Positions 18,315-20,506 of a stretch of DNA of 64,000 nucleotides are shown in pieces. Position numbers and translations under genes: made by a program. The notes under the pieces were generated by a model. The model was not told where the DNA came from. It saw only the letters and a list, made by a program, of their open reading frames with translations, and did not search any database. The DNA comes from Burkholderiales bacterium (lineage in GTDB: Bacteria > Pseudomonadota > Gammaproteobacteria > Burkholderiales > JAEUMW01), in NCBI GenBank assembly GCA_039807745.1, contig JBDHRV010000001.1, positions 4,705 through 68,704 on the forward strand. Direction: 5' to 3'. Position 1 is the stretch's first letter, and every line of letters begins with the position of its first letter.

Positions 18315-18524
18315 TCAGGGAACAGGATCAAAGCCTCCGGGATGCCACGGATGGCACCGCAGGATGCGCGTGACGGCCAGCCAGCCACCGCGCAGCGCGC
18401 CATGCTTGAGCACGGCCTGCCTCGCATACTCCGAGCAGGACGGCGCGAAACGGCACGACGGAGGATAAAGCGGGCCGATGACAATTTGATAGAGCCTGAT
18501 CAAGCCGACAAGGAATCGCGACAT
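18315..18524 (-). CDS. yidD: membrane protein insertion efficiency factor YidD
   Basis: 69 aa from the ATG at 18524: [46 protein letters not shown]. The upstream part of ORF 18315..18674 overlaps rnpA and is rejected. Confidence 0.9.
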
Positions 18525-18859
18525 CTGGCTATCGCCGAAAGCACCTCGATCACCTCCGAATGCGCGCCGCCGCCTGTTCGGCCCTCGCGGCCGGGGCGAA
18601 ACCGGAGCACTACGTCCAGCCCGGCGAGGTTGAATTGCGCGGCTCGGAACTGTTCCCGCACCCAGCGCTTGCACTGATTGCGATCGACCGCCCGGCGCGC
18701 GGCCTTACGTCCGATTACGATGCCGAGCCGGGCGAATCCCAACTCGTTCGGTCGCGCGTATCCCTCTACCGAGGGTCGACGCACGATCGCCGGGGTGCGC
18801 AGAACGGCCCGGAATCGATCCTGGCCGGAGAGGCGTTGGGCCTTGCGCAGTCGCCCCAG
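18500..18859 (-). CDS. rnpA: RNase P protein component; start codon unresolved
   Basis: ...[17 protein letters not shown]...[30 protein letters not shown]... is RnpA-like. There is no ATG/GTG/TTG in frame between 19030 and 18784. The coordinate given uses the CTG at 18859, 15 nt after the rpmH stop (see findings). Confidence 0.8.
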
Positions 18860-18873
18860 GGTCGCGCCTCGGC

Positions 18874-19008
18874 CTAGACCGCCAGTCGATGGCGGCCCTT
18901 GGCACGACGGGCATTGATGATCGCGCGACCGCCCCGGGTGCGCATGCGCACCAGAAATCCATGGGTGCGCTGACGGCGGACTTTCGAGGGGTGGTAGGTG
19001 CGTTTCAT
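18874..19008 (-). CDS. rpmH: 50S ribosomal protein L34
   Basis: Translated by hand (below the ORF-track size cut-off): [44 protein letters not shown], stop TAG at 18876-18874. Confidence 0.96.
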
Positions 19009-19028
19009 TCGATCTGGCCTTATCGGTC

Positions 19029-19060
19029 AAAAAAGCTCGTCATTACAACCTCGGACGAGC
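19029..19060 (-). terminator. terminator-like hairpin plus T6 immediately upstream of rpmH (function uncertain)
   Basis: On the minus strand: GCTCGTC-(12 nt)-GACGAGC followed directly by TTTTTT. It ends 20 nt before the rpmH ATG. Confidence 0.3.
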
Positions 19061-19086
19061 ATGCCTGTCAATCCCTGCGCCCGCTC

Positions 19087-19095
19087 TGTGGATAA
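19087..19095 (-). promoter_or_regulatory. DnaA box, perfect TTATCCACA
   Basis: The plus strand reads tgtggataa. It lies 74 nt upstream of the dnaA start, in the rpmH|dnaA spacer. Confidence 0.75.
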
Positions 19096-19168: not shown

Positions 19169-20506
19169 ATGATTCAAACAGATAACTTCTGGCAAGCGTG
19201 TCTCGCCCGCTTTGAGGCAGAACTTTCCCCACAGCAGTTCAAGACCTGGATCAAGCCCTTGCGCCTGACCCCAAACGGCGAAGGGTTCGTGCTCTGGGTG
19301 CCGAACCGCTTCGTCCTGCAATGGGTACGCGACCGGTTTCTGAACGCGATCCTGAGCCATGCTGCGCAATACTTTGGCCGTCCCATGGCCATCGATATCG
19401 CACTTTCGCCCGCGCCCGCTGCCGAGCGCGAAGCGCCGTCGCTGCCGGCGCAGAGCGAACGCACCCAGTCACCGGCCGGGCGTGAGCAATCCCGGCTCAA
19501 CCCGCTCTTCTGCTTCGACACCTTCGTCACGGGAAAAGCCAACCAGCTCGCGCGCGCGGCCGCCATCCAGGTGGCCGAACGACCGGGAGCCGCCTATAAC
19601 CCGCTGTTTGTCTATGGCGGCGTCGGACTCGGCAAGACACACCTGATCCAGGCGATCGGCAATCTCCTGAGCGAACGCAACGCCGCAGCCAAGGTTCGCT
19701 ACATCCACGCCGAACAGTATGTCTCGGATGTCGTTCGCGCGTACCAGCACAAGGCCTTCGACGATTTCAAGCGCTACTACCACTCGCTCGACCTGCTGCT
19801 CGTCGACGACATCCAGTTCTTCGGTGGCAAGAGCCGCACGCAGGAGGAGTTCTTCTACGCTTTCAACGCTCTCATCGAATCGCACAAGCAGGTCATCATC
19901 ACCTGCGACAGCTATCCGAAGGAAATCAATGGGATAGAGGATCGTCTGATCTCCCGTTTCGGCTGGGGTCTCACCGTGGCCGTCGAGCCACCGGAGCTCG
20001 AGATGCGGGTCGCGATCCTGCTGAAGAAGGCCGAGGCAGAAGCCGCGAAGCTCGACGAGACGGTCGCATTCTTCATCGCGAAGCACATCCAGTCGAACGT
20101 TCGCGAGCTCGAGGGGGCGCTGAAGCGGGTTCTCGCCTATTCCCGCTTCTCCGGACTACCGCTGACCGTGGATCTAACCCGCGAAGCGCTGAAGGATCTG
20201 CTTGCGGTCCAGAGTCGCCAGATCTCGATCGACAACATACAGAAGACCGTGGCCGACTACTACAAGATCAAGGTCTCGGAGATGTATTCGAAGAAGCGCT
20301 CACGCACCGTGGCACGGCCCCGTCAGATGGCGATGGCGCTCGCCAAGGAGCTCACGCAATTGAGCCTGCCCGACATCGGGGAGGCATTCGGTGGCCGCGA
20401 TCACACGACGGTACTGCACGCGTGCAGGAAGATCGCCGAGTTACGATCCAGCAACAACGACATCACCAGGGATTTTGCGGCGCTGCTGCAGGTTCTGCGC
20501 AGCTAG
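19169..20506 (+). CDS. dnaA: chromosomal replication initiator DnaA
   Basis: 445 aa, AAA+ Walker [12 protein letters not shown]-terminal DNA-binding domain (…[15 protein letters not shown]…). Confidence 0.98.

Follow-up and report, generated by a model that had tools for sequence, protein, structure and literature searches.

In the window analysed here (the whole 64,000-nt stretch of DNA), the gene coding for the RNase P protein, rnpA, is probably an ordinary operon gene with a CUG start, most likely CTG 18859 and possibly also CTG 18850, giving a RnpA of 119 aa. The long open reading frame (ORF) that continues over the neighbouring rpmH gene would be, as part of the same explanation, a compositional by-product that is probably not translated as RnpA. 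The best reading is a near-cognate start of a rare but known kind, which has already been annotated by machine in the near-identical locus L004. The oddity is real but modest, and it does not represent a new system.

The rpmH operon and its upstream region

The operon lies on the minus strand, with dnaA (19169–20506, plus strand) as its divergent neighbour. It begins with rpmH (18874–19008; ATG 19008, TAG 18876–18874), whose 44-aa product, L34, matches Pfam PF00468 (Ribosomal_L34) over its full length with 77.8 bits, and continues with rnpA, for which we propose a coding sequence (18500–18859) of 119 aa from CTG 18859 to TGA 18502–18500, followed by yidD (18315–18524; Pfam YidD, 108.8 bits) and yidC (18301–16616). 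The order rpmH–rnpA–yidD–yidC beside dnaA matches that of E. coli. The 3′ end of rnpA overlaps yidD by 25 nt (18500–18524), which is an ordinary arrangement, the E. coli K-12 genes being annotated with 37 nt of the same kind.

The predicted product is a member of the RnpA family by profile, structural colinearity and operon position. It matches Pfam PF00825 (Ribonuclease_P) with 71 bits, for a cut-off of 22.3, over model positions 1–99 of 109, and it aligns with the E. coli RnpA of solved structure (2LJP/7UO0, also 119 aa; E = 1.7e-10) from residues 9 to 105 on residues 11–106 of the chain. The alignments to other solved RnpA proteins reach within about two residues of their N termini, and the N-terminal RL..F segment is included in this colinearity.

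A codon-by-codon walk confirmed that, downstream of an in-frame TGA (19042–19040), no stop interrupts the rnpA frame between 19039 and its end at 18500, and that its canonical start triplets are only TTG 19030 (19028–19030), GTG 18784 (18782–18784) and TTG 18742, the near-cognates being ATT 18958, CTG 18859 (18857–18859), CTG 18850 (18848–18850) and CTG 18802. This agrees with the preliminary description, which had reported no ATG, GTG or TTG between TTG 19030 and GTG 18784, and its coordinates for the former, 22 nt 5′ of the rpmH ATG and opening an ORF of 176 aa, were also confirmed. The PF00825 model starts at residue 61 of this mechanical ORF, that is, at CTG 18850, so that initiation at GTG 18784 would drop the first ~22 model positions, in line with the earlier remark that this start deletes the conserved N terminus.

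Upstream of rpmH, a promoter-like element (19042–19071, minus strand) consists of TTGACA (19071–19066), 18 nt and TGTAAT (19047–19042). Both blocks are invariant in the eight loci of the close clade described below while the spacer between them varies, a pattern that we infer to be the signature of the rpmH promoter, with the 5′ end of the transcript about 5–7 nt before TTG 19030. A consensus promoter scanner did not call this minus-strand element, whose −10 hexamer has a G as its second base, and the promoter call thus rests on the pattern of conservation. The Shine-Dalgarno (SD) sequence of rpmH, AAGG (19018–19021, minus strand), is invariant in the eight loci, with a duplex of −3.8 kcal/mol at a spacing of 8 nt. 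Other elements were seen in the same intergenic region. A perfect DnaA box (TTATCCACA, 19087–19095, minus strand), invariant in 8/8 clade loci, is presumably part of dnaA autoregulation or of an origin-proximal region. An inverted repeat, GCTCGTC (19060–19054) and GACGAGC (19041–19035), followed by TTTTTT (19029–19060 overall, minus strand), looks like a terminator and straddles the putative −10 box; it is reduced to a 5-bp version in L002, which has a T-A to C-G change, and pairs more weakly in L001 and L003, while the T-run plus GACC after it is invariant. If transcription started further upstream, this repeat could be a leader element. No Rfam family reached its gathering score over the whole window (1–64000), which therefore holds no tRNAs, riboswitches or known leaders.

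Distribution of the missing start and evidence for a CTG codon

The comparative set comprised 68 distinct rpmH–rnpA junctions, taken from contigs of seven relatives, one GTDB representative and 80 metagenome loci; the protein search contributed the seven relatives only, and the metagenome scan was the source of the set. A profile scan of GTDB genome contigs (from an alignment of five sequences) matched a single species representative, which makes the clade a rare one. The close clade, of uncultured Burkholderiales, comprises eight loci (the window and L001 to L007). One of them, L004 (GCA_016791285.1, an NCBI MAG), shares 99.82% identity with the window across 2838 nt; with five mismatches it is an assembly in its own right, and its junction differs from that of the window by a single synonymous change in rpmH.

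What is unusual in the window is the lack of a canonical start in the 14–23 nt past rpmH, where 59 of the 68 distinct junctions carry one (58 GTG and one ATG, located from −4 to +19 nt relative to the rpmH stop); the view of the preliminary description that the missing start is the real oddity therefore holds. The nine junctions without such a start are the window, L004, L001, L003, L005, L006, L007, L017 and L053. Seven of the eight clade loci are thus included, five lineages besides the window and L004, and the lack of a canonical start is a shared trait of this small clade, since only L002 carries a canonical start, a GTG at the column of the window codon GCG 18865 with AGGAG 5′ of it.

The two remaining junctions are outside the clade. 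In L017 (1478–1500; L018 is identical), from an unrelated metagenomic lineage with a GC content of 65%, there is no canonical rnpA start either, and a CTG overlaps the rpmH TGA (CCCCTGACC; CTGA) in the classic −4 arrangement of stop and start, only that the start is a CTG, which suggests that CUG-started rnpA genes have arisen more than once. The low-GC (43%) metagenomic contig L053 (1374–1800) was discarded as a true start-less exception, having a GTG directly past the rpmH stop that opens an apparently N-terminally short RnpA, without the RL..F segment and beginning near the equivalent of the window GTG 18784. The gene may have decayed or the protein may be short by nature, and on the evidence of this contig such short forms are conceivable in principle. 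An apparent overlap of rnpA with rpmH in the same contig (start at −86) was rejected as an artefact of extrapolation from a partial profile match.

Within the clade, the pattern of substitutions delimits the start. Along the 25 codons from CTG 18859 to GTG 18784, the eight loci show 154 synonymous and 120 non-synonymous codon differences in the rnpA frame, whereas the two alternative frames give 16/242 and 28/216. Such strong purifying selection in the rnpA frame marks the segment as translated, which rules out GTG 18784 as the only start. The signal of conserved residues with silent codon changes sets in at the first CTG; two codons further on, Arg is encoded in 8/8 loci (by CGA, CGG or CGC). 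On the other side, the five codon columns 5′ of this CTG are variable, with five to six different amino acids at −1 and −2 among the eight loci, and the rpmH–rnpA spacer (18860–18873 in the window, minus strand) evolves as non-coding DNA, its length being 13 or 14 nt depending on the lineage (a 1-nt indel). The comparison thus shows that rnpA has to start somewhere past the stop codon of rpmH and no later than about the second codon of the conserved stretch, and within these bounds the window offers only CTG codons, CTG 18859 and CTG 18850. In L006, the first CTG is the one start-like codon between an in-frame TAG and the conserved domain.

Several features favour the first CTG. It is found in seven of the eight loci (CGC in L003), it is the codon from which the NCBI protein P0001 of L004 is annotated, and its distance of 14 nt from the rpmH stop is within the range (3–19 nt) of canonical GTG starts among the 59 other junctions. 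An SD-like GAGG (18867–18870, minus strand) lies 6–7 nt 5′ of it, with an anti-SD duplex of −5.9 kcal/mol vs. −3.8 for the rpmH SD, although the support from this element is weak because scores of −6 to −5 are obtained with 12–22% of random local 20-mers. In L006, L007, L001 and L005, the same CTG is preceded at 6–7 nt by G-rich elements (GGGG, GGG, GAG). The conservation of CTG at a conserved Leu is also weak evidence, since CTG is the commonest Leu codon in such GC-rich DNA. Overall, the comparative data favour a CTG start, one of the options left by the preliminary description.

The second CTG is present in six of the eight loci. Initiation exclusively at this codon, giving a 116-aa protein, seems rather unlikely to us: it aligns with position 1 of the Pfam model, is invariant in the first five aligned loci and is the only one of the two CTG codons in L003, but it is CTT in L006 and L007, the GAGG would be 15 nt away, which is too far, and the Arg codon 5′ of it, kept in all loci with three synonymous variants, is itself likely to be translated. 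No single codon explains all eight loci, because L003 has no first CTG and L006 and L007 have no second. A truncated RnpA from GTG 18784 (or TTG 18742), without the RL..F segment, is very improbable. This GTG is the first canonical codon downstream and the apparently natural RnpA of L053 starts at about the same position, yet its column is not conserved (V, V, E, E, E, Q, A and A in the eight loci), L001, L005, L002 and L003 have no canonical codon in columns 0–26, it has no SD (−2.1 kcal/mol), about 22 of the 109 Pfam positions would be lost, and the 25 codons upstream of it are under purifying selection in the rnpA frame. The preliminary description had also considered a sequencing error hiding an ATG or GTG. 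An assembly or sequencing error of this kind, for instance a true GTG read as GCG 18865, has a minimal chance of being the explanation: L002 does have GTG precisely at this column, but the independent assembly L004, with five mismatches over 2838 nt, has the same GCG and the same start-less junction, and the column reads CCA (L001), CCA (L005), CGA (L006), CAA (L007) and GCG (L003) in the other loci.

The open frame across rpmH

Ahead of the conserved N-terminal segment there is a single canonical start, TTG 19030, and the frame is open from there on, so that a 176-aa RnpA could be read out of frame over the whole of rpmH. The same configuration is found in L004, L001 and L005, with a 180-aa product called by JGI in L001, and there is a precedent in Thermus (Feltens et al., 2003, via PMC9841429), in which rpmH is nested within rnpA, the two AUGs lying one nucleotide apart (AUGGAUG) behind one GGAGG SD. 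The resemblance is limited to an rnpA-frame ORF spanning all of rpmH in a different frame. The upstream start of the window is a TTG 22 nt away and without SD, instead of two AUGs one nucleotide apart with one shared SD; close relatives have stops in the frame or an rnpA in another phase, and no sign of selection is seen in the overlapping reading.

The interruptions are a TAG in L006 and a TAA in L007, both in the rnpA frame within rpmH and both synonymous for L34, and TTG 19030 is equally conserved in these two loci in spite of the stops that come after it. In L002 and L003, the 1-nt deletion in the spacer puts rnpA in phase 1 instead of phase 2, so that whatever was read within rpmH would not be in register with rnpA; phase 1 across rpmH is always closed by the TGA of ATGAAA. 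The preliminary description had proposed an alignment of relatives to see whether the frame stays free of stops and whether a relative has a canonical start: the latter was found, in L002, and the former was not the case, an outcome that it had named as refuting the overlap. The rpmH substitutions are ~90% synonymous for L34 and nearly all non-synonymous in the −1 frame. Pairs of distinct clade lineages have 10–20 substitutions each, of which 9–19 are synonymous for L34 and 0–2 in the −1 frame, and between the window and L001 there are 13 differences, 11 synonymous for L34 and none in the −1 frame.

The preliminary description had cautioned that the open frame over rpmH was weak evidence, and rightly so. 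Of 67 distinct GC-rich rpmH genes, 61 have no stop in the −1 frame, genomes with a normal GTG rnpA start included, and the same holds for ~70% of the synonymous resamplings of the window rpmH. No canonical start triplet occurs in this frame inside rpmH in 59 of 66 genes, and one is located up to 39 nt 5′ of the rpmH ATG, with no intervening stop, in 60 of 66. The open frame and the absence of start triplets inside rpmH are thus not above chance, and an open −1 frame with an upstream start triplet is generic, most such genomes having a normal GTG rnpA start. TTG 19030 also lacks an SD close enough to serve it, the strongest pairing with the anti-SD reaching −2.6 kcal/mol 13 nt away, and it would be only ~5–7 nt downstream of the inferred transcription start. 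A nesting of the Thermus type is refuted as a conserved mechanism by the aligned loci, and we regard it as highly improbable for the window. The ATT 18958 listed in the preliminary description does not fare better, being GTT in L001, upstream of the in-frame stop in L006 and not conserved.

Another way to use the upstream frame would be an L34–RnpA fusion, if ribosomes shifted frame in a programmed manner or read through where rpmH ends. In the window, rnpA does occupy the −1 frame with respect to rpmH, with 14 nt between the two genes, but some lineages would need a shift of −1 and others one of +1, in L006 it could take place only within the final three codons of rpmH, there is no slippery site of the X XXY YYZ type before the stop (CTG GCG GTC TAG) and no conserved downstream RNA structure, so that this possibility can be practically dismissed.

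Probable initiation at CUG and the supply of RnpA

The most probable picture, an rnpA started from CTG 18859, resembles E. coli in gene order, dnaA adjacency, a 119-aa RnpA and an rnpA 3′ end that overlaps yidD. Both genes have weak start codons close to the rpmH stop, GTG 16 nt past it in E. coli and the candidate CTG 14 nt past it in the window, the difference being that CUG is outside the canonical set to which GUG belongs. Near-cognate starts are also known in bacteria, as in infC of E. coli, which starts with AUU. The likeness is a start other than AUG, GUG or UUG for a product needed in small or regulated amounts; however, the rnpA candidate is a CUG and not an AUU, and to our knowledge no autoregulatory logic of the IF3 type is known or suggested for RnpA.

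In the mechanism that we propose, the canonical start codon of rnpA would have been replaced by the near-cognate CUG, initiation would be at CTG 18859, 14 nt past the rpmH stop and 6–7 nt 3′ of the SD-like GAGG, and the weak codon would be read either by 30S subunits that bind de novo or by ribosomes coming from the end of L34 synthesis. The weakness of the codon would hold the RnpA:L34 ratio low, for which bacteria ordinarily rely on GUG or UUG starts. L34 exceeds RnpA ~130-fold in E. coli, and GUG or UUG starts commonly keep RnpA low (PMC9945441), while in reporter assays in the same organism CUG initiates at 1–2% of AUG and is about 10-fold weaker than GUG (bioRxiv 10.1101/063800). Since the need for RnpA is small and CUG still reaches 1–2% of AUG, a CUG start would be a further step in a known direction and quantitatively sufficient. 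RnpA may thus be kept scarce by the weakness of its CUG start, perhaps with some help from translational coupling with rpmH.

Translational coupling by termination-reinitiation involves a downstream start near the stop of the upstream gene in one operon (PMC6728339, PMC10666635, PMC12548453), and the closeness of the rpmH stop to the rnpA start, together with the −4 overlap (CTGA) of L017, is alike. The gap of 14 nt and the SD-like element of the window are points of difference. In E. coli, such coupling is almost abolished at about 20 nt, so the gap is near the distance where it fades (PMC10666635), and independent initiation is equally possible because of the SD-like element. Coupling by RNA unfolding was discarded as there is no conserved structure at the junction: the window fold has z = −0.40 vs. 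shuffles and the covariation term of the alignment fold is positive (unfavourable). A report of reinitiation at non-canonical codons (PMC4648390) is a study of eukaryotic oocytes and was not taken as evidence. As a tentative extension, which we consider possible but doubtful, an essential gene would have kept CUG over a family-level Burkholderiales clade, and CTGA independently elsewhere, with initiation by the ribosomes terminating on rpmH, so that the efficiency of reinitiation would hard-wire the RnpA:L34 ratio.

Bacterial CUG starts with experimental support are very rare, and gene callers treat them inconsistently. Public calls for the rnpA of this clade do disagree (L001 675, L003 1501, L004 1501, L002 978): the JGI call in L001 has 180 aa and begins at an ATG within the −10 box of the promoter, NCBI calls in close relatives have either 140 aa from a CTG inside rpmH or 119 aa from the CTG after rpmH, and the Logan call has 121 aa from GTG. 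The lesson is that a long open frame across a GC-rich neighbour gene should not be taken as gene nesting. What is known of RNase P is unchanged by these data, and their interest lies in the clade itself, in which an essential single-copy gene has no canonical start, so that nature provides a case on which near-cognate initiation and translational coupling can be tested.
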